A DNA stretch of 64,000 nucleotides from an uncultured Acidobacteriota bacterium (GTDB taxonomy: Bacteria; Acidobacteriota; Blastocatellia; RBC074): contig CAWCKY010000003.1 in the NCBI GenBank assembly GCA_963796275.1, positions 1,472,001-1,536,000 on the forward strand, read 5' to 3'. The notes under the pieces were generated by a model. The model had not been told where the DNA came from. It was given only the letters and a program-made list of their open reading frames with translations, and did no database searches. Below, in pieces: positions 8,941-38,057 of the stretch. The number at the start of each line of letters is the position of its first letter. Position 1 is the stretch's first letter. The translations under genes were made by a program, and so were the position numbers.

Positions 8941-10242
8941 GTGCTGCTTATTATGTTTCGAGTTCCGGTAGAGCCGACGAGAACGACAATTGATGATGTC
9001 GCACCGCGGCTGGACGATGGACAGCTTTCTCAACGAACCGCTAACGCCGGCGAAATCTCCTCACCTCCTCCAAATAAAAACTCGAATTGGAGCGGATTGA
9101 TGGGGCGTCCGTTGCCGAGATGGGCGTGGCCAGTTGTGGCAGCGACTGGGGCGCTCATCGTTCTCCTCCTCCCGCTCCTTTTTTATCGAGCGCCGGGATT
9201 CACTGTCGTGGTGAGAAGTGTGCCGCCAGACAGCCGAATCTACATCGACGACGTGCCGCGTGGTATCCCCGGCGGCGAGAGAGGCGGGGATACCGCGACA
9301 GCATTAATCAGGGCGCATGGATTGAGATCGGGCGTCAGCCATACCGTTCGCGTAAGTTGTGGAGGTGGTGACGCCTCGCTCTATCTCGCGAATGGCACTT
9401 CGGTCAACGACGTATCGGCCCAGGATGGAGAGGTGGTTGACTTGACGGTAAAGAACTGCGGCCCACCGCCGGCCGAGATCGATTACAACGGCAAAATGCG
9501 CTTCATTGCGAGAGGCGCATTTCTGATGGGCGATAATCAGGGACGGCCTAATGAGAAGCCGGCTCGCCTGGTGGAGATAGATTACGACTATTACATCGAC
9601 AAGTACGAGGTTACCAATCAGCAATACCGAGCTTTTTCTAACAGCCGGATAGGCCGGGCCTTCCCCCGTGAGCCTGAGTGGGATGCCGATTATTCGGCGA
9701 AGCTGGATCATCCGGTTGCCGGAATTTCTTGGAATGACGCCAGAGCATTTTGTGAGGAGTGGGCGAAGAAGCGCTTGCCGACAGAAGAGGAATGGGAAAA
9801 GGCCGCTTCTTGGGATCCGAAGGCTTCCGAGGCCTCGCCAGTCTGGAAACGCAAATGGCCGTGGGGGAATGCATTCGATCCTGACCTCGTAAATTTCAGG
9901 TCGGGTCGTCCGATGCCGGTTGGCCAATTGTCCGACGGCGTGAGCGCGTACGGAGTGCTCGATATGGCCGGCAACATCGGCGAATGGGTCTCCGACGTTT
10001 ATCAGGCCTATCCGGGTAATCCGATTTCAGATCCAAACTACAGCGGTTCGTATCGGGTGCTTCGCGGCGGGACTTTCAAGACCACCGATGAAGATGGACT
10101 TCGCACGACTCGACGAAGTTTTGGGCCGCCTGCATTCAGCCCCGCCGAAAGTTCAGGCGCTATTTCTTTCATAGGTTTCAGGTGCGCGGTGAGAAGCGAT
10201 GATGCCGGTCTGCAGAATCACTTGAGGGGTGCGAATAGATAA
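8941..10242 (+). CDS. Membrane-anchored PEGA-like + FGE-sulfatase (SUMF1/TagR-like) domain protein
   Basis: TM helix; GAFLMG, YIDKYEVTN, HPVAGISWNDA, RLPTEEEWEKAA, DMAGNIGEW, RVLRGG, IGFRC motifs; start uncertain. Confidence 0.85.
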   Translation: MLLIMFRVPVEPTRTTIDDVAPRLDDGQLSQRTANAGEISSPPPNKNSNWSGLMGRPLPRWAWPVVAATGALIVLLLPLLFYRAPGFTVVVRSVPPDSRIYIDDVPRGIPGGERGGDTATALIRAHGLRSGVSHTVRVSCGGGDASLYLANGTSVNDVSAQDGEVVDLTVKNCGPPPAEIDYNGKMRFIARGAFLMGDNQGRPNEKPARLVEIDYDYYIDKYEVTNQQYRAFSNSRIGRAFPREPEWDADYSAKLDHPVAGISWNDARAFCEEWAKKRLPTEEEWEKAASWDPKASEASPVWKRKWPWGNAFDPDLVNFRSGRPMPVGQLSDGVSAYGVLDMAGNIGEWVSDVYQAYPGNPISDPNYSGSYRVLRGGTFKTTDEDGLRTTRRSFGPPAFSPAESSGAISFIGFRCAVRSDDAGLQNHLRGANR

Positions 10243-10322
10243 AAAGATTTCCGTCAGTTATCAAATGCAAAACGAACTATCCAGCAGAAACTGGAACCTT
10301 TTGAGTGAAGTGAGGGAAGGTC

Positions 10323-11051
10323 ATGATCCTAAAACACAAGATTTTTTTCGCCACCTTTCTGGGACTAATTTGCTCTCTACTGCTTGTTCGGGGCGCATCA
10401 GCCCAGGAAAACGATTACGGCACGTGGAAAAAGGCGGAGGTTATCACCAGGCCGGCGGCCAAAGGCAGACCCCGACCGTTCCGGATCAAATCGCCTTTGT
10501 TAACTATGCGCTGGCAGTTTTTTGTCGCAGGCGAAACGACTGAAGAGGCAATCGATCCGGCGAGACGAACCTTCGTCGACGATGAATTGGTACGGATCGC
10601 GGTCCAGGTTAATCAAATAGGATACGTCTATGTCATCAATCATACGGTGAAGCATGACAACAGCATCGAAGGCCCGTTTCTCATCTCTAGAGGACACTAT
10701 CAGATCAAAAAGGATCAACAACTGGTGCTACCTCTGCTATGCCCCGACCCGAATCGAATAAATGGCAAATGCTGGTGGCGGACCAAATCGCCGCCGGGAC
10801 GAGAAGTAGTCACCATCATTTTCAGCAGGGATGAGATTGAAGAATGGAAATATCCGGACACCAGCGAAGGGGATTCGCTGGTGAGCGAATCCCTGATTTA
10901 TTCCCTGACGCGCGAATCCCCGGATACAAACCGGAAGATATTGATGGGACCGCTTCAGAGGACCAATCGGGGACAGATCACGGAGGTATGGAATCCCAAT
11001 CCGAAACGTAACGAAGTGCTGGTTGAAAGAATCGAATTCGCTCACGAATAA
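10323..11051 (+). CDS. Exported DUF4384-like protein
   Basis: Signal peptide ending ASA-Q; F..DELVRIAVQVNQIGYVYVIN and PPGREVVTIIFS match the DUF4384 pattern. Confidence 0.7.
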   Translation: MILKHKIFFATFLGLICSLLLVRGASAQENDYGTWKKAEVITRPAAKGRPRPFRIKSPLLTMRWQFFVAGETTEEAIDPARRTFVDDELVRIAVQVNQIGYVYVINHTVKHDNSIEGPFLISRGHYQIKKDQQLVLPLLCPDPNRINGKCWWRTKSPPGREVVTIIFSRDEIEEWKYPDTSEGDSLVSESLIYSLTRESPDTNRKILMGPLQRTNRGQITEVWNPNPKRNEVLVERIEFAHE

Positions 11052-11219: not shown

Positions 11220-12026
11220 ATGAGATCGGACAAGCGAAAACAAAGTATTTTTATTGCCCTCGTATCGTCCGTCCTGCTTTGTGGCGTCATTCTCGCCCAG
11301 AATACGCCGCGCGCGCGTACGCTGACGCTCAATGGTCAGGATGTGACGAAGAAGCAGGATGGGCTTGAGATTCAAATCCTAAAGGAGGCCGGCGGAAAAT
11401 GGGTATTCACCGGACAGAATGAGGAGTTTAAGTCGGGCGATAAAGTGCGGGTCCAATTTTGGAGTAACATCAAGGGCTTTGCCTACTTCATCAATATCGC
11501 GCCGAGCGGCAAACAAAGGGTCATCTACAGCAGGGCGATAGAGAAGGGTAAGGATTACACGTTGCCCGGCATGGACGGCGGCAAGGAGATGTGGATCGAG
11601 TTCGATCAGGAGAAGGGCGTGGAGATTTTGAAACTCGTTGTGACCCCGACACCGATTAAAGTCTTCGACGAGGCGTTGAGCCGGTCGCAGGGCGAAATCG
11701 TAGAATCGGTCTTCAGCGTCTCCGATGAGCTGCTTGGTGACGAACGCAAGCCGGGACAGAGTTCCGCGCAGATAGCAGTGCCGAATTCCGGGCCGGGTTT
11801 AAATCAGCGGTTCGAGCAAGTGGTGATGGTTCAACCGCAAGGATCGCAGGCGTGTCTTCGCGCTCGCGGACTCGGCCTTCGCTGCCGCTCCCTCGGCCTC
11901 GATCCTCCCGACCCGAAAAAAGGGAAAGGGGCAATTGTCGTTGCAATGCCGGACTCGAAGAGCGCGACGGGCAAGCTTAATAAGGATGAGGCGATCGTCG
12001 TCGAACTTCGCTTCAAACACATTTGA
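11220..12026 (+). CDS. Exported DUF4384 domain protein
   Basis: Signal peptide; FKSGDKVRVQFWSNIKGFAYFINIAPSG and FDQEKGVEILKLVV match the DUF4384 pattern. Confidence 0.75.
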   Translation: MRSDKRKQSIFIALVSSVLLCGVILAQNTPRARTLTLNGQDVTKKQDGLEIQILKEAGGKWVFTGQNEEFKSGDKVRVQFWSNIKGFAYFINIAPSGKQRVIYSRAIEKGKDYTLPGMDGGKEMWIEFDQEKGVEILKLVVTPTPIKVFDEALSRSQGEIVESVFSVSDELLGDERKPGQSSAQIAVPNSGPGLNQRFEQVVMVQPQGSQACLRARGLGLRCRSLGLDPPDPKKGKGAIVVAMPDSKSATGKLNKDEAIVVELRFKHI

Positions 12027-12142: not shown

Positions 12143-13504
12143 ATGGTTCGATTTAGTCTGCCAGGAGGCTTGATGTCAGGTGCGCTGAAATCGAGATCGG
12201 GATCTGCGTGCAGACTCCGAACGCGACGCTATCCGGAGTCATACGCGGAATCACAATGGAATAGGTCGAGGATGACAGGATTCGCCTTGTGGCTCTGCAC
12301 TATCGTGGTGACGATCAATGCCAATATTCCGAATACTGACGGCTCATCAATTCTCACGCAGGCTATCGGATCGCGGGAGTCTGAGAAGAGTGGCATTCTC
12401 GTGCGGGATGCGAGGGTCAGAGTACGCCGCGCGATAGCGGCTGTTGGGCTAATTCTGGTCAGTGAAGGTGATGGTGATCAGCCACGGCCGAGCGGTTCGG
12501 GCGTCGTCATCCGGCAGGATGGCGTGATCGCCACCAACTGGCATGTCATTAAGCAGCGTAACTCCGATCGGCATTACAAGGAGATTTATTTCAGCCTAGC
12601 CGCAGATAGCGGCGCATCGCCGCTCGATTCGTCGAGCTTTCGAATGCGGGTGGTGGATTTCGATCGAGAGCTCGATCTGGCTCTAATGCGCATTGTCACG
12701 GACGACGAGGCTTCGGGGGAGCAGTCCCCGCTGATTTTGCCGTTCATCGAAATGGGTGACTCACAAGCCATCGAATTACTCGATGATCTGGTGATCATCG
12801 GTTTCCCCGCGATGGGAGGCGCGACAGCCACGGTCAGCCACGGGATTGTCGAGGGCAAAGACAATGTCGAGGGATGGATCAAGACGGATACGCGCATGCT
12901 GCACGGAAATAGCGGCGGGGCCGCAGTCAGCGCTGAGGGCAAGCTGATCGGGATTGCCACCAAGGTCGAAGTCGATCTGGCGCAGAATGATGTGCGGTTG
13001 GGTGCCATCGGCTACCTGCGCCCGTCAAACCTGGTTTCAAAAATGTTCAACAGAATGATCCAGGGAGAACGATCGGAGGTGACTTTATTGAACAGTTCTC
13101 TCGAACAGGCTTCGCCCACACCCCAACCTTCGTTACCCGTCAATGTCAGCGGCTCGGTGAGATTTGCGGTGAACGGAAACCCGATAGCGGGAGCGCGTGT
13201 AGGACTGCTCATCACCGGACGAGAAGTCGCTCCGAATGCGCTTATTGGCTGGGGAGGGACAAATGCCGACGGCTTTTCCCAATTCGAAAATTCGGTGCCG
13301 CCCGGGATGTATCCATTGCGCGCGAGAGTGGTCGGCGATGAACGATATGCGCCTTACGAGCAGGAGATCGAGATCTCACCCGGAATGAATAAGCTGGTCG
13401 TTGAGCTGAAACCGGCAAACGTAGCAAACGTGGCAAACGTAGCAAACGTGGCAAACGGGGCAAACGGGGCAAACGAGCAGAGAGCGCGAAAGGCCAGTAA
13501 GTGA
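12143..13504 (+). CDS. Trypsin-like (S1C/Trypsin_2) serine protease with C-terminal carboxypeptidase-regulatory-like beta-sandwich, no PDZ
   Basis: Triad motifs ATNWHV, ELDLAL, HGNSGG; C-terminal VSGSV..NGNPIAGARV..TNADG..PPGMY; true start possibly ATG 12272. Confidence 0.85.
   Translation: MVRFSLPGGLMSGALKSRSGSACRLRTRRYPESYAESQWNRSRMTGFALWLCTIVVTINANIPNTDGSSILTQAIGSRESEKSGILVRDARVRVRRAIAAVGLILVSEGDGDQPRPSGSGVVIRQDGVIATNWHVIKQRNSDRHYKEIYFSLAADSGASPLDSSSFRMRVVDFDRELDLALMRIVTDDEASGEQSPLILPFIEMGDSQAIELLDDLVIIGFPAMGGATATVSHGIVEGKDNVEGWIKTDTRMLHGNSGGAAVSAEGKLIGIATKVEVDLAQNDVRLGAIGYLRPSNLVSKMFNRMIQGERSEVTLLNSSLEQASPTPQPSLPVNVSGSVRFAVNGNPIAGARVGLLITGREVAPNALIGWGGTNADGFSQFENSVPPGMYPLRARVVGDERYAPYEQEIEISPGMNKLVVELKPANVANVANVANVANGANGANEQRARKASK
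13415..13477 (+). repeat. In-frame 9-bp tandem repeat (GCAAACGNN)x7 encoding ANVANVANVANVANGANGANE
   Basis: Read directly from sequence. Confidence 0.95.
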
Positions 13505-14646
13505 AGATTTGGGGAATCAAAAGCAGTGTGCTCGATGGTTTCGCGGCCAGTCGCGGGAGGCGCGCGATGATTCTCGAGCTGGTCTATCTGATCGAGCGGC
13601 TTTCGAAGTTTTGGATTGCTCTTGTGTCGGCTGCCATTTTGATCGTGATCATCATCATTCTGACATTGATAAAGCTCGTGACGGCTGGAAGCGATTGCGG
13701 TAGCGTAAAGATCATCAGCCCTTTATCGGGAGCGACTATCGACGAATCAGTTAAGGTACTGGTTGCAGCCGACCGTCCGGCATGTATATCGAGCATCAGT
13801 TATAAAATCGCCGGGCTTCAATTCGCCGAACCTGAGACGGATATATTTGAAACGAATCTCGATCCGCGCGTGATTGGTGAAAAGTTCCCCGATCTGACGG
13901 ATGGAGATTATGAACTGTCGATTTCTATCGAAACTGAGTCGGGCCAAACGGAGGCGGTGGTCGATAGTGTGCAGGTGAATATCGAATTTCCCAATATGGA
14001 GGGAGAGATCAGCCTGGAGAATATCCGCGAGATGGCAGAGAAACTCGCAACCAGGATCAATCAGCGCGGCGAGATTTTTACCTTCGATGACGAGTTTCTG
14101 ATTCAGATTCGCACCGCTACGCTGAACTATCGGACGGATATGTTCACAGGCGCCGAGAATATCGGCGCACGAATTCGCAGAACCAGTAATAGCGTGGGGA
14201 TACCTTCGCAACTGATGTTCCTGCTCGCAGCCAGTCGCAGCCGTTGCAGTATGGATCAGACGGTAGGCGGTTGTGGTGTCGATCCGGACGGAGCTGGAAC
14301 GTTCAAGGTTCCGCCTTCCATTATGAATCAATTTGGAGAGAGGTCAGCCGTCGATCACGAAATCGTGACTCAGGTAGCAGCCCGGCATTTGAAAGAGCTG
14401 ATCCAGGGGCAACGAGACGATTTTCTCTATGCTATCGCTTGTTTCGGCGAACCGAGCGCGCGAATCGGAGATATCTTCCAGCGCAACGATCAACAGGCTC
14501 GGCGTAATTTCCACGATCTCGTCGAGAGAGGCGAGATCAGACCGGAAGAATCGAAGAGAGTCGTATGTTTCCTGGCTGCCGGTATAGTTGCGGAGAATCC
14601 CGATAAATTTGGGATCAAGACAAGGTCGTTTGTTGACGTCTATTGA
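13501..14646 (+). CDS. Membrane-anchored Ig-like (Big) domain + degenerate SLT-like domain protein
   Basis: TM helix; VKIISPLSGATIDESVKV...DGDYELSI Ig-like; C-terminal VVCFLAAGIVAENPDKFG resembles the next gene's SLT C-terminus. Confidence 0.65.
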   Translation: MKIWGIKSSVLDGFAASRGRRAMILELVYLIERLSKFWIALVSAAILIVIIIILTLIKLVTAGSDCGSVKIISPLSGATIDESVKVLVAADRPACISSISYKIAGLQFAEPETDIFETNLDPRVIGEKFPDLTDGDYELSISIETESGQTEAVVDSVQVNIEFPNMEGEISLENIREMAEKLATRINQRGEIFTFDDEFLIQIRTATLNYRTDMFTGAENIGARIRRTSNSVGIPSQLMFLLAASRSRCSMDQTVGGCGVDPDGAGTFKVPPSIMNQFGERSAVDHEIVTQVAARHLKELIQGQRDDFLYAIACFGEPSARIGDIFQRNDQQARRNFHDLVERGEIRPEESKRVVCFLAAGIVAENPDKFGIKTRSFVDVY

Positions 14647-14798: not shown

Positions 14799-14896
14799 GA
14801 AAGCGCCCGAGTACGCATCGCTTCCGGCGTGCGGGATTCGGCAGGGGACTAATGAAGAATCCTGGTGCTGGAAGCGATGCGTACTCGGGCGCTTTC
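14799..14896. repeat. REP-like inverted repeat with perfect 27-bp arms
   Basis: GAAAGCGCCCGAGTACGCATCGCTTCC (14799-14825) / GGAAGCGATGCGTACTCGGGCGCTTTC (14870-14896). Confidence 0.92.
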
Positions 14897-14920
14897 CTGA
14901 GGAGATCAGTTACATTGAAT

Positions 14921-16480
14921 ATGTACACTTGGAACAACATCAAAACCAGAGTCGGGGGCAGCAGAGTGTGGCTCGCTATCATGACCGCCTTGCTGCTCGG
15001 AATTATCATTCTGAGCTGCATCGCCATGCTTGTGGCGAATCAATTCAGCAGCCGTGCCGCAGACCGCGAGTATGGCCAGTCACCACAATCTGAGCTGCCG
15101 CAGTCGACCTCCAATTCCATAGTTGCCATCAATGTGGCATCTGGAAAAACTTCTCGTCTGCTCTACACCGAGATGACCAGGGAGCAACAAGGCGATTTTC
15201 TAGAACGAGAAGCGGGTCGCGTCACCTCCTTAATAGGGAACCGCGAATACGTATTCGAGAATGAGGTGATCGATTTCATCAAAGAGTATGTGGATGGATA
15301 TGCGAAGAGGATAGCGACGAAGAGCACCGGGCTCTGGAATGAGGATTTGAACTATGTTTTTGAGCGAGCCCGGGAAAATGCGCCGAAGATTATAGCCTCG
15401 TTCAGAAGGGAAGGCGTGCCCGTTGTGCTCGGCCTTTATCTCCCGATGATTGAATCTGAGTATAACGAATGTCTCCAGAGCCCGGCCGGTGCGCTCGGGC
15501 TATTTCAGTTTATGCCGGCCACGGCGAGCGGTTACGGGGTTTCACCATCAGATCGTTGCCAGGTCGAGAAGATTGCGCCGGCTGCGGCAAGTTATATGAA
15601 GGACCGAATCCGAGAATTCGGCAATGATGGAATGAGCGTCGCGCTGGGCATCGCCGCCTATAACCGCAGCCCCCAATCGGTGCGGCGCGACCTTCAAGAT
15701 GTGATAGACAGCAGGTCCAATGAACGCAGTTTCTGGACGCTCCTGGCGAAGAAGGAGCAGCTGGATAAATATTTCCGCAACGAGAATATAAAGTACGTCC
15801 CGAAATTTTTCGCCGCCGCAATCGTGGGCGAAAACCCGGAAACATTCGGTTTACGAATCAGGAAGCTCTCGACTTACGACTATTCGCTGGCATCAGCCGA
15901 TAGCCCCTGTCGGAGTTTGGCGGATGGCGAAATCGAGGAGGCGGCGCGGCAGCTAATGGGGCGGATTAGCAACGATCTTCATATCTACGAATTCCCATCT
16001 GACAAATCACACATCGGCAGAGTGAAAGAAGTAATTGAGGGAAATTGTAATTCGACAGTATTGGGCACTCAGCTGCAGGCCCTCAGGCGCAGCCGGGCCC
16101 GGTTGATCGATTGGTCGGAAAATCAGATTACACCCGATCTGTTAGCTTATGCGGCGCTGGCCAAAACAATAGGGCGCGCTGCTGATAGCGTGGGGCAGGC
16201 CAGGAGAATGGCACCACAATTGATCGAAGTCAGTAAACTACTGAAGGACAGCAATGCCGACACCGCGCTTCTTTCGCTCGCCGCCTATGAAATGGGCCGG
16301 CCCTCGCGAGGGGTGCACCCGATCCACCGAAGGATGGAAGGCCGAATAAATCACGACACCGAACGCAATGTATGGGACCTTTATCGCAAAGGCGGGTTGA
16401 CAGAAGCTGAGTACCGTTTCGTCATTCGATTCCTGGCATTCGGGATCATCGCTCACGAACCGAGAAGGTTCGGTTATTAG
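14921..16480 (+). CDS. Membrane-anchored lytic transglycosylase (SLT, MltD-like) with a second, degenerate SLT-like domain
   Basis: LYLPMIESEYN (catalytic Glu), SPAGALGLFQFMPATA, IAAYN, YVPKF; the ORF start at 14852 lies inside the REP, so ATG 14921 is preferred. Confidence 0.87.
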   Translation: MYTWNNIKTRVGGSRVWLAIMTALLLGIIILSCIAMLVANQFSSRAADREYGQSPQSELPQSTSNSIVAINVASGKTSRLLYTEMTREQQGDFLEREAGRVTSLIGNREYVFENEVIDFIKEYVDGYAKRIATKSTGLWNEDLNYVFERARENAPKIIASFRREGVPVVLGLYLPMIESEYNECLQSPAGALGLFQFMPATASGYGVSPSDRCQVEKIAPAAASYMKDRIREFGNDGMSVALGIAAYNRSPQSVRRDLQDVIDSRSNERSFWTLLAKKEQLDKYFRNENIKYVPKFFAAAIVGENPETFGLRIRKLSTYDYSLASADSPCRSLADGEIEEAARQLMGRISNDLHIYEFPSDKSHIGRVKEVIEGNCNSTVLGTQLQALRRSRARLIDWSENQITPDLLAYAALAKTIGRAADSVGQARRMAPQLIEVSKLLKDSNADTALLSLAAYEMGRPSRGVHPIHRRMEGRINHDTERNVWDLYRKGGLTEAEYRFVIRFLAFGIIAHEPRRFGY

Positions 16481-16505: not shown

Positions 16506-17891
16506 ATGAGTCGCTATCGACGCCTGGTATGGAATGAGGGGATGCTGCTTTCACCCCATCATTTCCAACAAGCGGACAATTACACGGAAGACCTCATCAA
16601 CACGCGCGTCGGCTGGCTGTTCGCGCACGAATGGGGAATACTCGACCTTCAGATCAACCGTGACGCAGTCGCTAATGGCTCGGTTCAATTGATAAGTTGC
16701 CGCGGCGTCATGCCAGATGGTCTGATCGTCAATATCCCGCAGACTTGCACGGCTCCTGAATCTCGCCAGGTGGGCGATCATTTCAGCCCGACTGCTGGCA
16801 ACCTTGATGTCTATCTTTCCGTCCCGGCGAGACAGGTGGGGGCGGCAAATTTTCAGGCCAGCAGGAATTCGACCAATGGAAACCATTCCAACACGCCAGC
16901 TCGCTTCCTGCAGGACGCGGGGCTGGTAGTTGACGAAACGTCGGGCGAGAACGAATTCCAGCTCGCATTCGCGCGTCCCAACTTCAAACTATTGTTCGAT
17001 GGCGAACCGCGCGAGGGTTACAATGTCATCAAGATCGCCGAATTACAGCGCACGGCCACCGGCCGTTTGAAGATCGCTGAAGAATACGTTCCCCCGGCGC
17101 TTCACATCGGTGCATCGCCGTGGCTCGAAAATCTGTTGCGCCAGCTGATTGAGTTTCTTGTCGCTAAAAGCAAGACGCTCGGTGAGCGGCGACATCAAAG
17201 CGGATCGGGCCAGGCAACCTTCACGACCGATGACGGGATGGTCCTGTGGACGCTGCCGACGCTCAATGCTGCAATCCCTCCGCTGGCGCATCTATTTCAT
17301 CAGCGCATCGTTCACCCCGAGAGACTATACACCGAGATGGTAAGACTGGCCGGCGCGATGATGACGCTGGTCTTCGACCGCCATGCCAAAGACCTGCCGC
17401 GTTACGATCATCTCGATCTTTACCAGACCTTTCGCCAGCTCGATTTCGATATTCGCTTCCTGCTCGAAAGGGTCGATCCCCAGCGTTATGTTCCGATTCC
17501 ACTCGTACAGGAACGCCCAGCTCTGTACGTGGCTCGGGTCAATGATAATCGATTGCTGCGCGATGCCGAATTCTTCCTCGCCGTCGGCGCGCAGGTGCCC
17601 GAGAACAGGTTGATCGAGCGGGTGCCGTTCGCCGTCAAGATTGCTCACCGCGATGGTATTGACGTCGTGATCAACAACGCCCTGAGCGGCGTCAGCATGA
17701 CGCACGTCAGGCCGCCCGGACAGATTCCGACCCGCGCCGGGTTGCATTACTTCCGGTTGGACCGCAACGACCTCGACACCTCGCTCAAACGTTTTTGGGA
17801 TTTTATTGTAGCGACCAAGACCCTCTCCGTCTGGGTCGCTGATGAGTTCCCGGAGGCGAAGCTGGAACTCTATGCGATCAAACCTCAATAG
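16506..17891 (+). CDS. tssK: T6SS baseplate subunit TssK
   Basis: VWNEGMLLSPHHFQQAD N-terminus, GVMPDG, YVPPAL, HPERLY, YDHLDL, C-terminal LELYAI. Confidence 0.93.
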   Translation: MSRYRRLVWNEGMLLSPHHFQQADNYTEDLINTRVGWLFAHEWGILDLQINRDAVANGSVQLISCRGVMPDGLIVNIPQTCTAPESRQVGDHFSPTAGNLDVYLSVPARQVGAANFQASRNSTNGNHSNTPARFLQDAGLVVDETSGENEFQLAFARPNFKLLFDGEPREGYNVIKIAELQRTATGRLKIAEEYVPPALHIGASPWLENLLRQLIEFLVAKSKTLGERRHQSGSGQATFTTDDGMVLWTLPTLNAAIPPLAHLFHQRIVHPERLYTEMVRLAGAMMTLVFDRHAKDLPRYDHLDLYQTFRQLDFDIRFLLERVDPQRYVPIPLVQERPALYVARVNDNRLLRDAEFFLAVGAQVPENRLIERVPFAVKIAHRDGIDVVINNALSGVSMTHVRPPGQIPTRAGLHYFRLDRNDLDTSLKRFWDFIVATKTLSVWVADEFPEAKLELYAIKPQ

Positions 17892-17898
17892 GAGCAGT

Positions 17899-18600
17899 AT
17901 GCAGGATACATTTTTTTCAAATAGCGCGTATACCATCTCGGACAACTGCCTGATCGATACATCGGCGCCTCTACTCCGAATGATGATGAAGATCAAAGCG
18001 GGGTTGGTTACGCCGTCCAATGAGATGCGTCATATGATCCACGACCTGTTCAAAAAATTCGAAGAGCGCGGGGCGAACAACGGTTACAGAGAAAGCCAAT
18101 TGCAAGATACCAAATTCGCACTAGCCGCGTTCGTTGACGAGACGGTGCTCGCCGGCGGGTTCCCGCTTCGCGAAGAGTGGGAGCGATATCCCCTCCAGCT
18201 CGAATTCTTCAAGGAAGCCCTGGCTGGAAACAAGTTCTTCGAACGTCTCGACTGGTTGATCAAACAGGGGGAAACCGATGTGGTAGAGATTTATTACCTC
18301 TGCCTGCTGCTCGGATTCAAAGGCAAATACCACGTATTCCTCGAGGATCAGTTGCCGGCCGTGATCAATGCAGCTGCCGAAAATTTGCGGGGAGCGGGGC
18401 GATTGCGGAGATGCGTGCTTTCACCGCACGGCCTCCTGAACGATCAACCGGATCCGCCATCACCGGAACCGGAAGTGTCGCGTTGGGCAAAATGGTCCGC
18501 CATGGCAGCGGCCGGAGTGATAGCATTTGCTTATCTCATTTTGAATTGGTCGCTGGTCTCGACTCTTGAAGCGGCGATGAGGGAGAGCCTGTTGAAATAG
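17899..18600 (+). CDS. tssL: T6SS membrane protein TssL (DotU family), no OmpA domain
   Basis: FALAAFVDETVL, W...PLQLEFF...AG.KFF, VVEIYYLCLLLGFKGKY; C-terminal TM; GGAG RBS before ATG 17899. Confidence 0.92.
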   Translation: MQDTFFSNSAYTISDNCLIDTSAPLLRMMMKIKAGLVTPSNEMRHMIHDLFKKFEERGANNGYRESQLQDTKFALAAFVDETVLAGGFPLREEWERYPLQLEFFKEALAGNKFFERLDWLIKQGETDVVEIYYLCLLLGFKGKYHVFLEDQLPAVINAAAENLRGAGRLRRCVLSPHGLLNDQPDPPSPEPEVSRWAKWSAMAAAGVIAFAYLILNWSLVSTLEAAMRESLLK

Positions 18601-26359: not shown

Positions 26360-26382
26360 CGCTCGGTCATTTCGCTGAAATT

Positions 26383-26472: not shown

Positions 26473-26481
26473 GATATTTTG

Positions 26482-26967: not shown

Positions 26968-26971
26968 CCAC

Positions 26972-29973: not shown

Positions 29974-30080
29974 CATCCGGACCCGATTCAAGGAGGACGC
30001 TTTGATAAAAATGTATACACATACGGAGCCGCAATAACCAGAGACAAATTAACTTCATTATGGCAGTCGAGGATACCAGG

Positions 30081-30185
30081 CTACCGCTGAGGTAGAGAGG
30101 GTGCAGAGCGGCTCAGAGTTTTTAATAGTCGATTCATTCATTTTCTCAGGGCCGCCTCTGCGTTCCCTCCGCACGGTAGCGGTGG
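30081..30185. repeat. Imperfect palindromic intergenic repeat
   Basis: CTACCGCTGAGG..GCAGAGCGGCTCAGAG versus CTCAGGGCCGCCTCTGCG..AGCGGTGG. Confidence 0.65.
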
Positions 30186-30254
30186 TTGAACAATGCGTCA
30201 CCCGAGCCTTGTGAATACATAGCTTTTGCAAGCCTAAGATCGAGGATAACCGCT

Positions 30255-32912
30255 ATGAACTTAAGTCCCAAATCACTAATTGCCAGGCTCAACGACACCT
30301 GCCGTATCGCTCTTGAAGGCGCGGCAGCCTTGTGCCTCTCGCGCACGAACTATGATGTCGAGCCCGAGCATTATCTGCTCAAGCTGATCGAAGGCGCTGA
30401 CACAGATATGGCGCGCATCCTGCGTCACTTTCAGATCAATACATCGCGACTGAACAGAGACCTCACGCGCGCGCTCGATCAGCTTAAGACCGGCAACGCG
30501 CGGACGCCGGCGTTATCACCGCGGTTGCCGCAATGGGTCCAGGAGGCCTGGATGCTTGCTTCGATTGAGTGCGGCGAATCGAAGATGCGTTCAGGCCACC
30601 TGGCCCTTGCTTTGATGAGCAATGATTATCTGTCGCGGCTGGCATCGGAAATCTCAGGCGAGTTCAACCGCATTCAGGGCGGGTCGCTCAGAGAGCTACT
30701 CGCCGAGATAACTGCTGGTTCCGTGGAAGCGAGAGAGGCGCTTAGTCTCGGCGATCATCGAGATCTCTCAATTGATGGTTGGTCGTCACGCGTCTCCGGC
30801 CCAACCGAATCGCTCGATCAATATACGGTCGATCTTACCGCCCGCGCACGCGAGGGCCGGATCGATCCCGTGCTCGGGCGCGATTTCGAGATTCGGCAGG
30901 TAGTGGATATTCTCACTCGCCGCCGCCAGAACAATCCCATTCTCACCGGTGAAGCGGGCGTCGGAAAGACCGCCGTGGTCGAAGGCTTCGCGATCCGCAT
31001 TGCCGAGGGGGATGTGCCCGAACCGCTCAGGAATGTTTCCCTGCGAACGCTCGATCTGGGCCTGTTGCAGGCGGGCGCGGGAATCAAAGGTGAGTTCGAG
31101 AATCGTTTAAAATCGGTAATAGAAGAAGTCAAGGGCTCGCCGCAACCGATCATCCTCTTCATCGATGAAGCCCATACAATGATCGGCGCGGGCGGGCAGG
31201 CTGGGCAGAGCGACGCCGCGAACCTGCTCAAGCCGGCACTCGCACGTGGCGAACTGCGAACCATTGCGGCTACCACCTGGGCTGAATATAAAAAATATTT
31301 CGAAAAGGACGCGGCCCTCGCCCGTCGATTCCAGGTGGTCAAAGTCGAAGAGCCGACCGAGGGGCAGGCCATTGTCATGATGCGCGGGCTGACGGCGATC
31401 TTAGAGAAGCATCACCAGGTCAGGATATTGGACGAAGCCGTTGCCGACGCCGTCAAGCTCTCGCACCGCTATATCTCAGGCCGCCAGTTGCCCGATAAAT
31501 CGGTGAGCGTGCTCGACACTGCCTGCGCCAGGGTCGCCCTCGGGCAGGGCGCGACTCCGCCGGCGATAGAAGATGCGACTCGCCGAGTCGCGCAATACAA
31601 CGTCGAGAGCCATGCGCTCGAACGCGAGGCAGCTACCGGCGTCGATCACGCCGCCAGAATAGCGGGGCTGAGTGCGGCAAGAAACAGCGACGAAGGGCGG
31701 CTGGCGCGGCTCAATGGACAATGGGAGAGGGAACGCGAGCTGATCGGCCAAATTCGGGCCATTCGGATAAAGCTCGAATCGCTCGCTGTCGAGAAACCGG
31801 ATTTCACCAATAATGGTGAGGCCTCATTGCGCGTAGAACTGGCTCAATTGAACGATGAACTACAACAGGTGCAGGGCGAGACACCTTTAATGCAGCCGTT
31901 CGTCACCTCTCAAACGATCGCTGAAGTGATCTCAGGCTGGACGGGAATCCCCATCGGCAAAATGCTGGCCGATGATATCAGTACTGTATTGCAATTGAAG
32001 GATCGGCTGGCGCGCCGCATCATCGGACAGGATCACGCGCTCGAGGCCATCAGCCTGCGTATCCGCACGTCGCGCGCCAACCTGACCGATCCGCGACGTC
32101 CCGCAGGCGTTTTCCTGCTCATCGGCCCCAGCGGCGTCGGCAAGACCGAAACGGCATTGGCCCTTGCCGATGTGCTGTACGGGGGCGAACGCAATCTGGT
32201 GGCGATAAATATGAGCGAGTATCAGGAAGCGCACACGGTCTCGTCGCTCAAAGGTTCCCCTCCCGGCTATGTCGGTTACGGCGAGGGGGGCGTGCTCACA
32301 GAAGCCGTACGGCGGAAGCCCTATTCGGTAATCCTGCTCGATGAAGTGGAAAAGGCGCACCCTGACGTATTGGAGCTCTTCTATCAGGTATTCGACAAGG
32401 GCGTTCTGGAAGATAGCGAAGGGCGCGAGATCGATTTCAAAAACACGGTCATCCTGCTCACGTCGAATGTCGGACTGGAGATCACTCACCTGCTCTGCGC
32501 CGATTCCGAAACAATGCCGGAGCCCGATGATCTGTTGGATTCGCTCCGCCCTGCGCTGCTCAAGGTATTCAAACCGGCGTTGTTAGGGCGCATGACCGTT
32601 GTACCGTATTACCCGATCGGCGATCAGGCGATGTGCGAAATTATCAAATTGCAACTCGACCGCATTGGCGCCCGGTTGGCAGAGAACCACGGCGCCCAAT
32701 TCGGTTATGACGAGGGAGTGGAGACGGAAATCTTCGACCGCTGCCGAGAAGTCGAGAGCGGCGCACGCAATGTCGATCACATTTTGACGAGAACGTTGTT
32801 GCCGGAGATGTCAGGAGAGTTTCTAGCCAGTATGGCGGAAGGAAAGAAGATTTCTCGTGTGCATATCGGTGTGAACGATGAGGGCAGCTTCAATTACGAG
32901 ATTTTTTCTTGA
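30255..32912 (+). CDS. clpV: T6SS ATPase TssH (ClpV)
   Basis: Two AAA+ modules (GEAGVGKT, GPSGVGKT), RRRQNNPILT, LQAGAGIKGEFENRL, ESGARNVD; ATG 30255. Confidence 0.96.
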   Translation: MNLSPKSLIARLNDTCRIALEGAAALCLSRTNYDVEPEHYLLKLIEGADTDMARILRHFQINTSRLNRDLTRALDQLKTGNARTPALSPRLPQWVQEAWMLASIECGESKMRSGHLALALMSNDYLSRLASEISGEFNRIQGGSLRELLAEITAGSVEAREALSLGDHRDLSIDGWSSRVSGPTESLDQYTVDLTARAREGRIDPVLGRDFEIRQVVDILTRRRQNNPILTGEAGVGKTAVVEGFAIRIAEGDVPEPLRNVSLRTLDLGLLQAGAGIKGEFENRLKSVIEEVKGSPQPIILFIDEAHTMIGAGGQAGQSDAANLLKPALARGELRTIAATTWAEYKKYFEKDAALARRFQVVKVEEPTEGQAIVMMRGLTAILEKHHQVRILDEAVADAVKLSHRYISGRQLPDKSVSVLDTACARVALGQGATPPAIEDATRRVAQYNVESHALEREAATGVDHAARIAGLSAARNSDEGRLARLNGQWERERELIGQIRAIRIKLESLAVEKPDFTNNGEASLRVELAQLNDELQQVQGETPLMQPFVTSQTIAEVISGWTGIPIGKMLADDISTVLQLKDRLARRIIGQDHALEAISLRIRTSRANLTDPRRPAGVFLLIGPSGVGKTETALALADVLYGGERNLVAINMSEYQEAHTVSSLKGSPPGYVGYGEGGVLTEAVRRKPYSVILLDEVEKAHPDVLELFYQVFDKGVLEDSEGREIDFKNTVILLTSNVGLEITHLLCADSETMPEPDDLLDSLRPALLKVFKPALLGRMTVVPYYPIGDQAMCEIIKLQLDRIGARLAENHGAQFGYDEGVETEIFDRCREVESGARNVDHILTRTLLPEMSGEFLASMAEGKKISRVHIGVNDEGSFNYEIFS

Positions 32913-33017: not shown

Positions 33018-33098
33018 TCTGGTTATGTTATCCGTGATTTTAGAAACCACTATAACGAACACTCATCTGGGCACCGCCCCAAAGGCTTCAATTTAGCT

Positions 33099-35240
33099 AT
33101 GAGGATGATGGCGAAAAAAGAGAGGGGAAGTAATGTGATGAAAGGCAGATTCACCCGAGGGATATCCGCAATTGCCGCAGCATTGTTGATCGCCGTCGTA
33201 TTGTCATCGCTGCATGCGCAAGCCCAGCCCGCCGGCAGCGGGGGCTCCGCGCCGTCCGATGATAAATATCAGCGTCCCGCTATCACGCCTGCCCGCCCTA
33301 ATTCCACTGCTCGCCAGCTCGAAATCAAAGAATTACGCATCGGCGGCGCACTCGACGGGCGCGGCAAACTCTGGGCCGTCGTGATCGGCGTCTCGACTTA
33401 CAAGAACCTCGGCCCCAATGATCAACTCGAATTCGCCCATCGCGATGCATCAGACTTCGCGGATTTTCTCCGCAGCCCGAACGGCGGCTTCCCCTCCAAC
33501 CAGCTCATTCTCCTGACCAATCAGACGGCGACTATTTCGGCGATGCGCAGCGCGCTCGGGACAACTCTGCCCCGTTCGGTCGAGCCCGATGATATGGTCA
33601 TCATCTTCTTCGCTGGTCATGGCGTGGTCGAAGGTGAGGGCGACGGATACCTGTTGGCCCACGATTCCGACCCGCAGAACCTCTACGCCACGGCATTGCA
33701 ACTCTCCGAACTCAATCGCATCGTCACGGAGCGGGTGAAAGCACGCTCTGTCATCCTGATCACCGACGCGTGTCATTCCGGGCGCCTGGGATGGGCCCCG
33801 CGCGGCGCAGGCGAATCGGCTATGCTCGTCAATCGCTACCTGGACGAAATTGACAGAAGCGGCAAGGGAATATTCCGTCTGCTCGCCTCCCGCGCCGATC
33901 AATTGAGTTATGAGGACAAACGCCTCGGAGGCGGCCATGGAGTCTTCACCTGGTTCCTGCTAGAAGCGCTGAGAGGCAAGGGAGACGCCGACGCGGACGG
34001 GATCGTCCGTGTGGGCGAAGTGATCGATTATCTATCGGAGACTGTGCCGAAAGCTACGCAATCGCTCCAGCACCCGCGAGCTGCGGGCGACATCGATACG
34101 CGGCTGCCGCTCTCGGTGCTTCCCGCCCGCGCACCGAAGATCAGCGAAAACGTCTCCTCGCCTGAGCAGACGGTCACGCTCGTAGTGCGAGGCGCGCCCG
34201 GTATTGAAATTTATCTCGACCAAATTTTTCGCGGCCACATTCTGCCCAGCGGCGTCTTGTTAATCGAACAACTCAAACCGGGTGACTACGATCTCTCGAT
34301 TCTCGCGCAGAATGTCGATCCAATTTCTCAGCGACTTTCGCTGGGCGCCGGGAAAACAACTCTGAATGTGAAGGTGGGGAGTCACATATCTCCAATCGCT
34401 ACACAGATCAAACTAGCTCTCAAGGGCGGCAATGTTCACAGCGCATACGATCTCTATCAAAAAATGATCAAGCAATCGCCGGGAGACCCGCAACGCGCTT
34501 CGATCGAAACGGCGCTAAGCAGCGCTCTTGAATCGATCGGGCAGAAGGCGATAAATGCCTACGTGCAGTCATTTGGCGCGGAACTCCAACGCGGAATGTT
34601 TCATCGGGCTGCCGAGGCGTACCGTTTTCTGAAGAGCATTCAACCGGATGTAGCCTGGGATATCGAGGCGAAGCACCGATTCTGCGAGGGCCGGGCAATG
34701 ATCGAGGACTTACGGTTTGAGGCAGCAGTCACACAGCTCAACCGAGCCGTGACCCTCGATCCGCGGGCAGCCTATGCTCACCACGCACTAGGACTGGCGT
34801 ATCGGGGATTAAATGAAAACGATCGGGCACTCGCGTCGTTAAGGCGCGCAGTCGAACTTTCCCCCGCCTGGGCTTTACCACAGCTACAAATCGGCGCGAT
34901 CTATCTTGAGCGGGGAAAGACCGGCAAAGCCGAAGAAGCATTGAGCGAAGCGGCGCATCGTGACCCGGTCAATTATGTGCCTCACGAACAACTGGCGCAT
35001 CTTTATCTTAAGGCGGGGAAGTACAAGGAGGCAGGACAAGAAGCCGACGTGGCGATCAAACTGGGGTCGAATTCAGGCGTCTCTCACATGGTGCTGGGGA
35101 TGGTTTACGAGAAGAAGGAGGCCTGGACGCTTGCGGCTGACGCTTATGAGCATGGCTTGAAGCTCATCTCCGGGCTCACCGAGGATGATCGCAAGGAATA
35201 TATAGAAAGGCTGAAGAAGTGCCGGAAAAAAGCGAAATGA
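33099..35240 (+). CDS. Exported caspase-family (peptidase C14) protease with PEGA-like and TPR domains
   Basis: Signal peptide (AQA); WAVVIGVSTY, FFAGHG (His), ITDACHSG (Cys), GGGHGVFT, EF-hand-like DADADGIV; TPRs in C-terminal third; start may be 33138. Confidence 0.9.
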   Translation: MRMMAKKERGSNVMKGRFTRGISAIAAALLIAVVLSSLHAQAQPAGSGGSAPSDDKYQRPAITPARPNSTARQLEIKELRIGGALDGRGKLWAVVIGVSTYKNLGPNDQLEFAHRDASDFADFLRSPNGGFPSNQLILLTNQTATISAMRSALGTTLPRSVEPDDMVIIFFAGHGVVEGEGDGYLLAHDSDPQNLYATALQLSELNRIVTERVKARSVILITDACHSGRLGWAPRGAGESAMLVNRYLDEIDRSGKGIFRLLASRADQLSYEDKRLGGGHGVFTWFLLEALRGKGDADADGIVRVGEVIDYLSETVPKATQSLQHPRAAGDIDTRLPLSVLPARAPKISENVSSPEQTVTLVVRGAPGIEIYLDQIFRGHILPSGVLLIEQLKPGDYDLSILAQNVDPISQRLSLGAGKTTLNVKVGSHISPIATQIKLALKGGNVHSAYDLYQKMIKQSPGDPQRASIETALSSALESIGQKAINAYVQSFGAELQRGMFHRAAEAYRFLKSIQPDVAWDIEAKHRFCEGRAMIEDLRFEAAVTQLNRAVTLDPRAAYAHHALGLAYRGLNENDRALASLRRAVELSPAWALPQLQIGAIYLERGKTGKAEEALSEAAHRDPVNYVPHEQLAHLYLKAGKYKEAGQEADVAIKLGSNSGVSHMVLGMVYEKKEAWTLAADAYEHGLKLISGLTEDDRKEYIERLKKCRKKAK

Positions 35241-35384: not shown

Positions 35385-37481
35385 ATGGGCGAATACAGAC
35401 AAGACAATCGGTTTATCCAGGTCTTCACACCGCTCGGTGAAGACGTGCTATTACTCGAGGGCTTTCATGGGCAGGAAGGGGTCTCCCGGCTCTTCAATTT
35501 CGAATTGCGGATGCATTCGGAGAAGATGGGCCTCTCGTTTAATGATGTCGTGGGCAAAACTACGACGATCAAAATGCTGTTACCGAAACATGGCGAACGA
35601 TACATAAACGGAATTGTGAGTTCGTTCATGCAAGGCGGAACCTGGTCGTTAAAGGACGGCCGGCATCCCACGATCTTGGCGAGCTACAACGCTACGCTGG
35701 TGCCGTGGTTATGGGTGCTGACGCGTACGGGCGATTGCCGGATATTTCAGAACAAGTCGGTCCCCGAAATCCTTAGTCAAATCTTCAAAGAGCACGGTTT
35801 TTCAGATTTTATATTCCGGCTGAAACTTAGCGATTACGAGAAACGCGAGTACTGCGTGCAGTACCGCGAGACAGATTTCAACTTCGTTTCGCGCTTAATG
35901 GAGGAAGAAGGGATTTTCTATTTCTTCGAGCACTTTGAGAAGAAACACGTGCTGGTGTTGGCCGACAAAAATATTGAATTCAAGCAGTCCCCTCTGCTTC
36001 CCTCGATCAGCTATAACTCGATCATTGGCCATGGAGAAGAGGGCAAGATCAAGGAGTGGAGCGCAAGCCAGGAAGTTCGTCCGGGGCAATATACCGTAAC
36101 CGATTTCAACTTCAAGCAGCCTTCGTTCGATTTGACGCATAGTGTTAAAGGCAAGGACGTACGAAAGCTAGAGGTCTTCGATTACCCCGGCGAATACACC
36201 GAGACAAAACGAGGCGAGCGATTGGCGGCCATCCGCATGGAGGAAGAGCAATCGTCGATGGTAGCCATCAACGGCGCCAGTAATAGTCGCGGATTGTCGG
36301 CTGGATATCAGTTCGAACTATGCGATCATTATCGGCCCGATTTCAATCAGCTCTATGTGGTGATATCGGCCTATCATTCGGCGGAGCACGGGATGAACTA
36401 CCGCAGCACCTGCGAAGCGGCGGCAGCAGATTTCGTTTACTCGAATGAGTTTCGATGCATCCAGTATGGGACGCAATACCGGCCGCCGCGCGTAACGCCT
36501 ATACCGATCGTTCACGGAACGCAGACAGCTATAGTGGTCGGTCCCCCTAACGAAGAGATCTATGTGGATAATTATGGCCGTGTGAAGGTGCAGTTTCACT
36601 GGGACCGGGAAGGCCAATACAACAAGGACAGTTCCTGCTGGGTGCGCGTCTCGCAGAATTGGGCTGGAAAACGGTGGGGGGCGATCTTTCTCCCGCGGAT
36701 CGGCCAGGAAGTGATCGTCGATTTCCTCGAGGGCGATCCCGACAAGCCGATCATTACGGGCCGGGTTTATAACGGCGAATCGATGCCTCCGTACGATCTG
36801 ACCGAGAACGAATATAAGACGATGAGCGCGATAAAGAGTCATTCGTCAAAAGGAGGTGGCGGATTCAACGAAATCCGCTTTCAAGACCTGAAGGGGAGAG
36901 AACAGCTCTTCTTTCACGCTGAGCGGAATCAGGACGTGCGCACCAGGCATGACAAGATAGAATGGATAGGCAACGAGAGCCATCTGATCGTTAAGAAAGA
37001 TCAGCTCGAAAAGGTAGAGGGCGACAAGCACCTCCACGTCGGGGGCGACCGCAATGAAAGAGTTGGTGGTACCGTTTCGCTACAAGCGGGCGGTGAAATC
37101 TTTCGCAAAACGGGAACGAGATACGCATTGGATGCGGGGAACGAGATTCACCTCAAATCAGGAACGAACCTGATTATTGAATCGGGCACAAGACTCACGC
37201 TCAAAGTCGGAAACAACTTCATCAATTTCAATTCAGACGGCATCGACATTCACGGGACGAAGGTCAATATCAATAGCGGCGGTAATGCGGACATCGGGGC
37301 CGGATCATCGCCCGAAGTACCGAAGACCCCGAGGGAAGCAGATCGCGCCGATCCGGGCGCCAAACCTCAGAAGCCTCCAGCGAAGAAACCCATTAAACCG
37401 GAGCAGTACAGTCCCGGCGCATTGGTCTTGAAAGAGGCGGCGGAGAACGGCACGCCTTTTTGTGAAAAATGCACGCAGTAG
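35385..37481 (+). CDS. vgrG: T6SS spike protein VgrG (TssI), no effector extension
   Basis: REYCVQYRETDFNFVSRLMEEEGI, DYPG, GTQTAIVVGP, GRVKVQFHWDR, PRIGQEVIVDFLEGDPDKP. Confidence 0.96.
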   Translation: MGEYRQDNRFIQVFTPLGEDVLLLEGFHGQEGVSRLFNFELRMHSEKMGLSFNDVVGKTTTIKMLLPKHGERYINGIVSSFMQGGTWSLKDGRHPTILASYNATLVPWLWVLTRTGDCRIFQNKSVPEILSQIFKEHGFSDFIFRLKLSDYEKREYCVQYRETDFNFVSRLMEEEGIFYFFEHFEKKHVLVLADKNIEFKQSPLLPSISYNSIIGHGEEGKIKEWSASQEVRPGQYTVTDFNFKQPSFDLTHSVKGKDVRKLEVFDYPGEYTETKRGERLAAIRMEEEQSSMVAINGASNSRGLSAGYQFELCDHYRPDFNQLYVVISAYHSAEHGMNYRSTCEAAAADFVYSNEFRCIQYGTQYRPPRVTPIPIVHGTQTAIVVGPPNEEIYVDNYGRVKVQFHWDREGQYNKDSSCWVRVSQNWAGKRWGAIFLPRIGQEVIVDFLEGDPDKPIITGRVYNGESMPPYDLTENEYKTMSAIKSHSSKGGGGFNEIRFQDLKGREQLFFHAERNQDVRTRHDKIEWIGNESHLIVKKDQLEKVEGDKHLHVGGDRNERVGGTVSLQAGGEIFRKTGTRYALDAGNEIHLKSGTNLIIESGTRLTLKVGNNFINFNSDGIDIHGTKVNINSGGNADIGAGSSPEVPKTPREADRADPGAKPQKPPAKKPIKPEQYSPGALVLKEAAENGTPFCEKCTQ

Positions 37482-37517
37482 AACCCAGGCTCTGACGTTG
37501 GAAATAAATTTGCTTCT

Positions 37518-38057
37518 ATGATTAACACGAAAATCCACGATGCCATAAAGGCTGCTATCTTCGAAGAACACGCGAATTTTGTGTACGCCGTATTGGATGG
37601 CGCCTCGATACCCGATTTGCTCCACCATCTATACGAGCAGCAGCCCGAGCACGTCTGCCTTTATCGCGGAGAAATGGAGCCCGACATCGCGGAGACCGCG
37701 CCATATCTGGTCAATCTCGAACGTGAAACGGCTTTCAGCGACTGGATAATCGAAAAGGGCTGGGGGAATCATTGGGGCATCTATGCACTGAGTGATGAGA
37801 CCATGACCGTGCTGCGCAACCATTTTCGCAGATTCCTTATCGTCAACGATCCGGAGAATAAGCCGCTCTATTTTCGCTACTACGATCCGCGTGTCTTGCG
37901 CAAGTACCTGCCTACTTGTGGTGCAAAAGATCTGGCCACCATCTTCGGTCCGGTCACGAGTTATTATCTGGAAAGCGAATACCCGAAAAGTGCCTCGCGC
38001 TTCCGGATGGAAGCCGGCTCTCTGTTTCGGGACGAGATGGCGATTGCAGAAACTTAG
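37518..38057 (+). CDS. DUF4123 T6SS effector chaperone/adaptor
   Basis: YAVLDGA, CLYRG, APYLV, WG, HFRRFL, YFRYYDPRVL; directly after vgrG. Confidence 0.92.
   Translation: MINTKIHDAIKAAIFEEHANFVYAVLDGASIPDLLHHLYEQQPEHVCLYRGEMEPDIAETAPYLVNLERETAFSDWIIEKGWGNHWGIYALSDETMTVLRNHFRRFLIVNDPENKPLYFRYYDPRVLRKYLPTCGAKDLATIFGPVTSYYLESEYPKSASRFRMEAGSLFRDEMAIAET

Follow-up and report, generated by a model that had tools for sequence, protein, structure and literature searches.

A 64,000-nucleotide stretch of DNA from an uncultured Acidobacteriota bacterium of the class Blastocatellia (assembly GCA_963796275.1, contig CAWCKY010000003.1, positions 1,472,001 to 1,536,000; this whole stretch is referred to here as the window, and coordinates are counted from its first letter) carries a type VI secretion system (T6SS) that belongs to a class-wide Blastocatellia lineage without a recognisable TssJ. 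Its core genes are packaged with seven accessory genes for envelope proteins, which fall into two units. Unit B consists of three paralogous inner-membrane proteins with SLT-like (lytic transglycosylase-like) domains, is encoded directly upstream of tssK, and tracks the T6SS across the class. Unit A consists of a receptor with an FGE domain, two DUF4384 proteins, a trypsin-like protease and often a caspase-TPR protein; it is portable and not T6SS-specific. The reading that we favour, with a rough probability of 0.55, is that a T6SS without TssJ is here combined with a T6SS-specific unit B and a portable sensing unit A, and that a phosphorylation switch encoded by this module in relatives has been lost in the clade to which the window belongs.

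The host genome (labelled G000 here) comprises 9.46 Mb in 7 contigs and is 94.7% complete, with the window lying in contig 3. Twenty genes, all on the + strand, span positions 8941-38057, and the gaps between them range from -50 to 212 nucleotides, which leaves no space for an unassigned gene in the cluster. The genes are as follows:

8941-10242, + strand: bitopic membrane protein with a periplasmic FGE-sulfatase (TagR-like) domain (PF03781, E 6e-46)
10323-11051, + strand: DUF4384 protein a, secreted, with a signal peptide, a Pro/Lys/Arg linker, a beta-sandwich and two invariant Cys (PF14326)
11220-12026, + strand: DUF4384 protein b, secreted (PF14326, E 9e-7)
12143-13504, + strand: exported, predicted trypsin-like (S1) protease with a C-terminal CarboxypepD_reg-like domain (Trypsin_2, PF13365, E 6e-24)
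13501-14646, + strand: unit B paralogue 1, 381 amino acids, with a transmembrane (TM) anchor, an Ig-like domain (Big_7, weak) and a predicted dead SLT-like domain
14852-16480, + strand: unit B paralogues 2 and 3, fused, 542 amino acids, with a TM anchor, an MltD-like SLT domain (PF01464) and a predicted dead SLT-like domain
16506-17891, + strand: tssK (PF05936)
17842-18600, + strand: tssL, short form (PF09850)
18681-22277, + strand: tssM (PF14331/PF06761/PF06744)
22425-32912, + strand: tssA, tssB, tssC, hcp, tssE, tssF, tssG and clpV (Pfam; TIGR03363 for TssA)
33099-35240, + strand: exported orthocaspase with C-terminal TPRs, between clpV and vgrG (PF00656, E 3e-14)
35385-37481, + strand: vgrG (Pfam)
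37518-38057, + strand: DUF4123 effector adaptor (Pfam)

Twelve of the 13 core T6SS genes are assigned by Pfam far above the cut-offs (tssK, L, M, A, B, C, hcp, tssE, F, G, clpV and vgrG), each as one uninterrupted, co-oriented open reading frame (ORF), just as the original prediction, made from the letters of the DNA alone, had described them; the last gene of the cluster, the DUF4123 adaptor, had gone unnamed there. This is the sole T6SS of the genome: there is one TssC match, and tblastn returns a single copy of every core gene. The NCBIfam matches of TssL are to DotU/TssL family models, none of which names a peptidoglycan-binding domain, and TssM has a weak match to the structure of TssM from enteroaggregative Escherichia coli (EAEC).

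Searches of the whole genome with PF12790 and TIGR03352 returned no TssJ match at E<=1, which bears out the earlier statement that no TssJ is recognisable; nor does the genome hold a canonical tssJ or tagF at another place, the whole-genome profile searches being empty for both (0 matches for TagF). Among 151 genomes of the class, PF12790 matches none, though 55 of them have TssK. Since the same profile detects TssJ in 6 of 201 sampled genomes of the phylum, none belonging to this class, the absence is a trait of the lineage and not of this genome alone, and it does not simply reflect a blind profile; the original view of a lineage-specific T6SS therefore stands. TssJ-less systems are not rare: in the accessible text of a published census, 27.5% of 1096 non-Acinetobacter genomes with tssM and tssB are without TssJ, TsmK or the GS-linker (PMC10564176), so the absence of TssJ alone is not new. 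FHA and PAAR domains are also missing from the locus, as had been noted. All 18 FHA matches and all 3 PAAR matches of the genome lie outside the window; the three PAAR-domain ORFs (G000:C3:351016, C1:1289323 and C7:957352) measure 444, 724 and 1504 amino acids and are candidate spike-tip effectors for the single T6SS. PADLOC returned generic protease, caspase and kinase domain matches only, and no defence system.

Unit B contains one SLT domain with an intact active-site signature. In paralogue 2, which forms the N-terminal part of the fused protein in the window (its likely start is near 14912, about 20 codons inside the annotated ORF; cf. P0021), the motifs IESEY, GLFQF and AYN are all present, and IESEYN aligns to IESAYN of MltD (8rhe); the Glu of IESEY is the residue that we take to be catalytic. 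These motifs are kept across four lineages and in 9 of 9 close homologues. The Glu is restricted to paralogue 2, the corresponding column being S, A, R or K in paralogues 1 and 3 of the four lineages, and to judge from this column the SLT-like domain encoded by 13501-14646 and the one in the C-terminal half of 14852-16480 are pseudo-enzymes. The earlier labels for the two proteins, Ig plus pseudo-SLT and SLT plus pseudo-SLT, were thus correct, the Glu motif occurring only in the SLT domain of 14852-16480. In Foldseek searches with a model of the periplasmic part of the fused protein (pLDDT 79, pTM 0.53, with a low-confidence domain arrangement), the top matches are MltD, with MltE and Slt further down.

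The complete form of the accessory module is found in relatives of the window. We compared 34 loci around TssK relatives on genome contigs, 20 stretches from ten sampled genomes, 4 further stretches, and 11 metagenome loci that were found by a scan with a DUF4384a alignment (the SLT protein, used as query in another metagenome scan, retrieved none). The arrangement that recurs in genomes and metagenomes alike starts with FGE, DUF4384a and one to three copies of DUF4384b, continues with the trypsin-like protease and the three SLT-like genes, and ends at tssK. In 10 of the 11 metagenome loci DUF4384a follows directly on FGE, and across the loci compared this pairing is systematic and not incidental. 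At locus L007, for example, Pfam reads the three unit B proteins as FHA+Big_7 (the orthologue of paralogue 1, 5730-7247), FHA+SLT and FHA, and all three match PF16697 (Yop-YscD_cpl) beside PF00498. In 17 loci all three paralogues have an FHA domain, which is also found in 91 of the 120 top-ranking database homologues of the window SLT protein, and a Ser/Thr kinase is fused N-terminally to the FGE protein in 9 loci as well as in many database homologues. Most relatives have a TagJ/ImpE gene between tssM and tssA, and their clusters continue after the DUF4123 gene with a PAAR gene, a conserved gene of about 145 amino acids and variable genes; all of these are absent from the window, and tblastn with FHA- and kinase-bearing relatives found no remnant of either domain in any of its frames. 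Missing from the window clade are the kinase, TagJ and the FHA domains of all three paralogues, and paralogues 2 and 3 have become one protein. The original prediction had set this T6SS apart from threonine phosphorylation, a contrast that the relatives overturn: because the same accessory proteins carry FHA and kinase domains there, the module is a variant of the threonine-phosphorylation pathway and not an alternative to it, and has been stripped in the window clade.

A quick maximum-likelihood tree of the SLT domain (122 rows, rooted for drawing only) places these changes in order. The fused form without FHA is represented by 9 database clusters including that of the window, the 8 others being 75-84% identical and 499-544 amino acids long, and all 9 keep the catalytic motif and a short cytoplasmic tail of about 15-20 residues; these 8 further clusters also rule out that the form is an assembly artefact. 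The 9 clusters form a clade (support 99) that is nested with unfused FHA-bearing forms (99), whereas fused forms that retain FHA, typical of family f9, fall into a separate clade (support 98). It follows from the nesting that the loss of FHA is derived, and from the two supported clades that paralogues 2 and 3 have fused at least twice, independently; the repeated fusion argues that their periplasmic domains work together. At the gene upstream, the C-terminus of the trypsin-like protease (window 13430-13504) is a low-complexity VANVANVANVANGANGAN tail, standing where the FHA domain of the next gene begins in relatives. This tail may be a deletion scar.

At the N-terminus of each of the seven accessory proteins is either a signal peptide or one hydrophobic anchor, which agrees with the earlier description of them as exported or membrane-anchored. 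The first of them had been described as a PEGA and FGE protein; the FGE part holds (PF03781), while no Pfam match to PEGA occurs in the window protein at E<=0.01, though many of its homologues carry PF08308. In its FGE domain, the segment that aligns with LCHDSYCNRY of the solved FGE structures 6muj/2q17, which holds the presumably catalytic Cys pair, reads KTTDEDGLRT and contains no Cys pair, and the sole invariant Cys among 17 orthologues is C415. The domain is to be seen as a TagR-like binding domain and not as an FGE-type enzyme. Sub-threshold NCBIfam and PDB matches of this domain are to GldK/PorK, the lipoprotein with an FGE fold that belongs to the ring of the type IX secretion system and gives a second precedent for this fold as a structural component of a secretion machine.

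Among the other members of unit A, DUF4384a was modelled with a pLDDT of 80, and its best structural matches (Foldseek and alignment) are generic Ig-like or macroglobulin-like folds with Z up to 8.2; TssJ is not among the structural matches listed for the model, which does not by itself prove the folds different. The predicted complex of FGE (residues 84-433) with DUF4384a (45-242) gave ipSAE values of 0.00 and 0.01, and is evidence neither way. The product of 12143-13504 has the His, Asp and Ser motifs of its family, has no PDZ domain, and matches HtrA-type NCBIfam models far below their cut-offs; we classify it, on these motifs, as a predicted trypsin-like protease and not HtrA proper. In the translation of the orthocaspase gene the AGHG and DACHSG motifs are present, presumably at the positions of the His-Cys dyad. 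A caspase-TPR gene flanked by clpV and vgrG is peculiar to the window and genome G006; the gene is often a neighbour of the FGE gene (L069, L071, L072 and L073). The host genome has a paralogue of it (72% identity, G000:C7:976383-978623) beside an ECF-type sigma/anti-sigma pair and a gene for a 1179-residue protein, with no T6SS genes nearby.

A possible link between the two units lies in the cytoplasmic juxtamembrane tail of the FGE protein. The motif D-x-T-[VLIM]-x-[LIM] occurs there in 15 of 17 aligned orthologues, most of these motifs having a hydrophobic residue three positions after the Thr; in the window the tail reads DDVAPRLD, with the Thr replaced. Many FHA domains prefer a hydrophobic residue at position +3 from the phosphothreonine, and the tail Thr motif is a candidate docking site that fits a relay from kinase to phosphothreonine to FHA. 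A regular-expression count of the motif (58 of 120 FGE homologues) was set aside, as it depended on arbitrary windows and many of the N-termini were truncated. No phospho-acceptor Thr is conserved across the lineage in the N-terminus of TssL.

The two units differ in how closely they follow the T6SS. The class sample of 151 genomes divides into 55 TssK-positive and 96 TssK-negative ones; an SLT-like match at E<=1e-30 was obtained in 51 of the former and in 10 of the latter. G130, an unpublished genome, is included in these counts and belongs to the 10. For 9 of those 10, the ORF sizes (about 700 plus about 280 amino acids) resemble a kinase-SLT paralogue pair that was verified in G000 only. 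That pair belongs to a paralogous module at G000:C3:769372-774069 (L070:7372-12069) comprising an ECF sigma factor, a kinase-TM-SLT protein (671 amino acids), a small SLT protein and a polysaccharide deacetylase. Of the 52 genomes with a full TssK, 40 have unit B no more than about 6 kb from tssK, going by the matches listed (150 of 431 SLT matches); in 10 it is found elsewhere, and in 2 it could not be placed. Strong SLT matches are lacking in the three TssK-positive genomes whose TssK matches are weak. As a rule, units A and B adjoin each other. One genome (G116) keeps the whole seven-gene block 60 kb from its T6SS, and in another (G072) the accessory block is on a different contig from the T6SS. 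Linkage of the accessory genes to the T6SS in relatives, which had been left as a check on the original prediction, is seen for the SLT-like genes; the FGE, DUF4384, trypsin and caspase genes are not specific to the T6SS, as they are also found in T6SS-less genomes and are missing from the T6SS loci of family f3.

Several observations weigh against the combination of both units with the T6SS that we favour. Those on unit A count in favour of the main rival, which we regard as possible, if on the unlikely side: that the SLT-like genes alone serve the T6SS, while the FGE, DUF4384, trypsin and caspase genes make up a separate module for envelope sensing or conflict that lies beside the T6SS and shares no function with it. 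DUF4384b homologues occur in 69 of the 151 class genomes, divided between 32 of the 55 TssK-positive and 37 of the 96 TssK-negative ones. In family f3, DUF4384b is nearly absent from the 21 T6SS-bearing genomes (there are 2 weak matches in the family's 38 genomes), and the f3-type T6SS loci that we fetched have the FHA-SLT trio only, without unit A. A T6SS-less genome (L073) has the kinase-FGE protein, two DUF4384 proteins, the protease and, 5 kb away, the caspase, with no SLT paralogue, and full-length caspase-TPR orthologues are present in 4 TssK-negative genomes, in addition to the 72% paralogue at an unrelated locus of the host genome itself. Other points touch unit B and the switch: a TssK-negative genome (G113) has a strong unit B match; in genera g8 and g11 of the window's own family, unit B often does not adjoin tssK; related genomes are not independent, so that the counts of co-occurrence overstate the association; and the closest FGE homologue (P0141, 84% identity) retains DDATVRLD, which weakens the argument that the tail Thr was lost together with the kinase and FHA domains. 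Against the independence of unit A stand the constant order in which its genes immediately precede unit B, seen in most loci of at least three families and in the two metagenome loci long enough to show it, the union of both units even 60 kb from the T6SS in G116, and the distribution of domains, with the kinase and Thr motif in unit A and the FHA domains in unit B, as in a natural sender-receiver pair.

Three further explanations fare less well. That the locus is a decaying, non-functional T6SS seems improbable: the window has indeed lost three FHA domains, the kinase, TagJ, PAAR, the gene of about 145 amino acids and the variable genes after DUF4123, yet no ORF of the 12 core genes or the accessory genes is interrupted, three PAAR-domain ORFs exist elsewhere in the genome, and the fused SLT protein without FHA is kept in 9 clusters down to 75% identity with its motif intact, and has therefore been maintained. 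We consider it no likelier that TssJ is present but too divergent to be recognised, or that a DUF4384 or caspase-TPR protein is an analogue through which TssM is anchored in the outer membrane. TssJ is a small protein that evolves fast, DUF4384a is predicted by its model to be a secreted beta-sandwich, and about a quarter of non-Acinetobacter T6SS genomes have no detectable TssJ and no known substitute in the accessible text of PMC10564176; however, not one of 151 class genomes has a match to a profile that works in the phylum, the compact cluster has no unassigned ORF, and sequence inspection found no lipobox in any accessory protein. The original suggestion that accessory proteins act in place of TssJ accordingly finds no backing, the DUF4384 model being a generic Ig-like sandwich, and nothing supports the replacement of TssJ by any of them; for DUF4384, a role as a general TssJ substitute is ruled out because its genes are absent from T6SS genomes of family f3. 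Most improbable of all is that the protease, caspase and SLT genes encode cargo effectors of the T6SS. Peptidoglycan hydrolases and proteases are common effector activities and the caspase gene adjoins vgrG, but all of these proteins have Sec signal peptides or N-terminal TM anchors, their relatives have an FHA-TM-SLT topology, no immunity-like partner genes are present, and the genes lie upstream of tssK and not in the vgrG/adaptor tail, where the variable genes of relatives sit.

If the favoured reading of a T6SS-specific unit B joined to a portable unit A is correct, the module of the relatives could work as follows. The FGE receptor (a kinase) would sense the periplasm, helped or modulated by the DUF4384 proteins and the exported proteases, and would be phosphorylated on the Thr of its juxtamembrane tail; the FHA-anchored SLT proteins would then dock on the phosphorylated receptor, and the one active transglycosylase, flanked by two dead paralogues that would bind peptidoglycan, would open the wall for assembly of TssL and TssM. 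Such a device would merge the logic of TagR-PpkA-Fha and that of MltE/TagX into one membrane-spanning module. As the cytoplasmic switch is gone in the window clade, the module can act there only in the membrane and the periplasm, where it would most likely remodel or bind peptidoglycan for insertion of the membrane complex, without phospho-control. A bolder form of this proposal holds that the FGE receptor kinase phosphorylates the Thr of its own tail and that this relay licenses assembly, with the DUF4384 proteins and exported proteases as processors of the signal, that the SLT trio opens and grips the wall and in doing so also takes over the anchoring roles of TssJ and TagL, and that the window clade is a natural "constitutive" mutant; we put this forward tentatively and think it unlikely.

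The module is a variant of known T6SS accessory systems, with its complete form in relatives and a stripped derivative in the window. In the accessible text of two sources, the H1-T6SS of Pseudomonas aeruginosa is controlled post-translationally at assembly by TagQRST-PpkA-Fha1-PppA, which includes the FGE-fold periplasmic protein TagR (COG1262), a kinase and an FHA protein, and cell-wall remodelling at T6SS assembly is assisted by MltE in EAEC, where it is recruited by TssM, and by TagX in Acinetobacter (PMC13584744, PMC10433429). Relatives of the window likewise have FGE, kinase and FHA domains in their accessory module; unlike the P. aeruginosa pathway, their FGE domain is on the kinase polypeptide or alone with a TM anchor, and their FHA domains are joined through a TM helix to periplasmic SLT-like domains, in three paralogues. 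The window itself has the FGE domain and neither the kinase nor FHA. The SLT domain of the window shares with MltE and TagX the general kind of a cell-wall hydrolase, with an intact motif, an MltD/MltE-like fold and a predicted function, but it is MltD-like and neither MltE nor an L,D-endopeptidase, it always comes with two paralogues that are predicted to be dead, and it is coupled to FHA in relatives.

Comparison with two other envelope machines gives a similarly mixed picture. The TssJ-less membrane complex of Acinetobacter comprises TsmK, TslA, TagX and a GS-linker in TssM, according to the accessible text of PMC10564176. Both systems lack TssJ and have lineage-specific envelope proteins; there is no sign of shared proteins, with no search aimed at TsmK or the GS-linker, and the Blastocatellia set (FHA/SLT, FGE, DUF4384 and proteases) is different in kind. 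With the YscD/PrgH ring protein of type III secretion systems, unit B of the relatives shares the FHA-TM-periplasm topology and the match to PF16697, whereas its periplasmic part is SLT-like and does not have ring-building motifs, and the window is without the FHA part. In the literature, as far as its text is accessible, DUF4384 appears mostly as an orthocaspase- or kinase-associated domain. In the searchable literature (subscription journals and supplements lie outside it), we found no paper joining DUF4384 with type VI secretion and, within the accessible text of reviews and comparative papers, no description of an FHA-SLT fusion associated with a T6SS; for Acidobacteria we found only general T6SS surveys, and no description of the module turned up in the literature searched.

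The surroundings of the cluster and some related loci provide further detail. Upstream, a 356-residue ORF on the - strand (window 7085-8155) is divergent from the module, and the 786-nucleotide non-coding stretch 8156-8940 between them probably carries the module's promoter. The next gene after the module is the following:

38102-39724, - strand: PMT_2 membrane protein (Pfam)

Rearranged core clusters occur at locus L021 and in genome G006 (L053/L054), where tssL and tssM lie outside the tssK-tssA interval; G006 places both genes after the DUF4123 adaptor, and its core cluster is complete despite the rearrangement. The g8-type loci L010, L013, L014 and L029 lack an SLT/FGE module before tssK. 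At a greater distance upstream in these loci, past DUF1553/DUF1501-like genes, are a prepilin-peptidase-like gene, a BON+OmpA gene, a coiled-coil gene and a small conserved gene, and the OmpA protein could be a peptidoglycan anchor.

This lineage lends itself to a compact comparative approach to the question of how, in the absence of TssJ, a T6SS membrane complex gets through the wall to the outer membrane. The fusion of FHA domains to a lytic transglycosylase family, together with that of a TagR-like domain to a kinase, predicts a direct wiring of phospho-signalling to the opening of the wall, and the window clade provides a natural comparison, that is, the same machinery after loss of the switch. 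DUF4384 and the "FGE-like" receptor domains, finally, gain a concrete and recurrent set of genomic partners.

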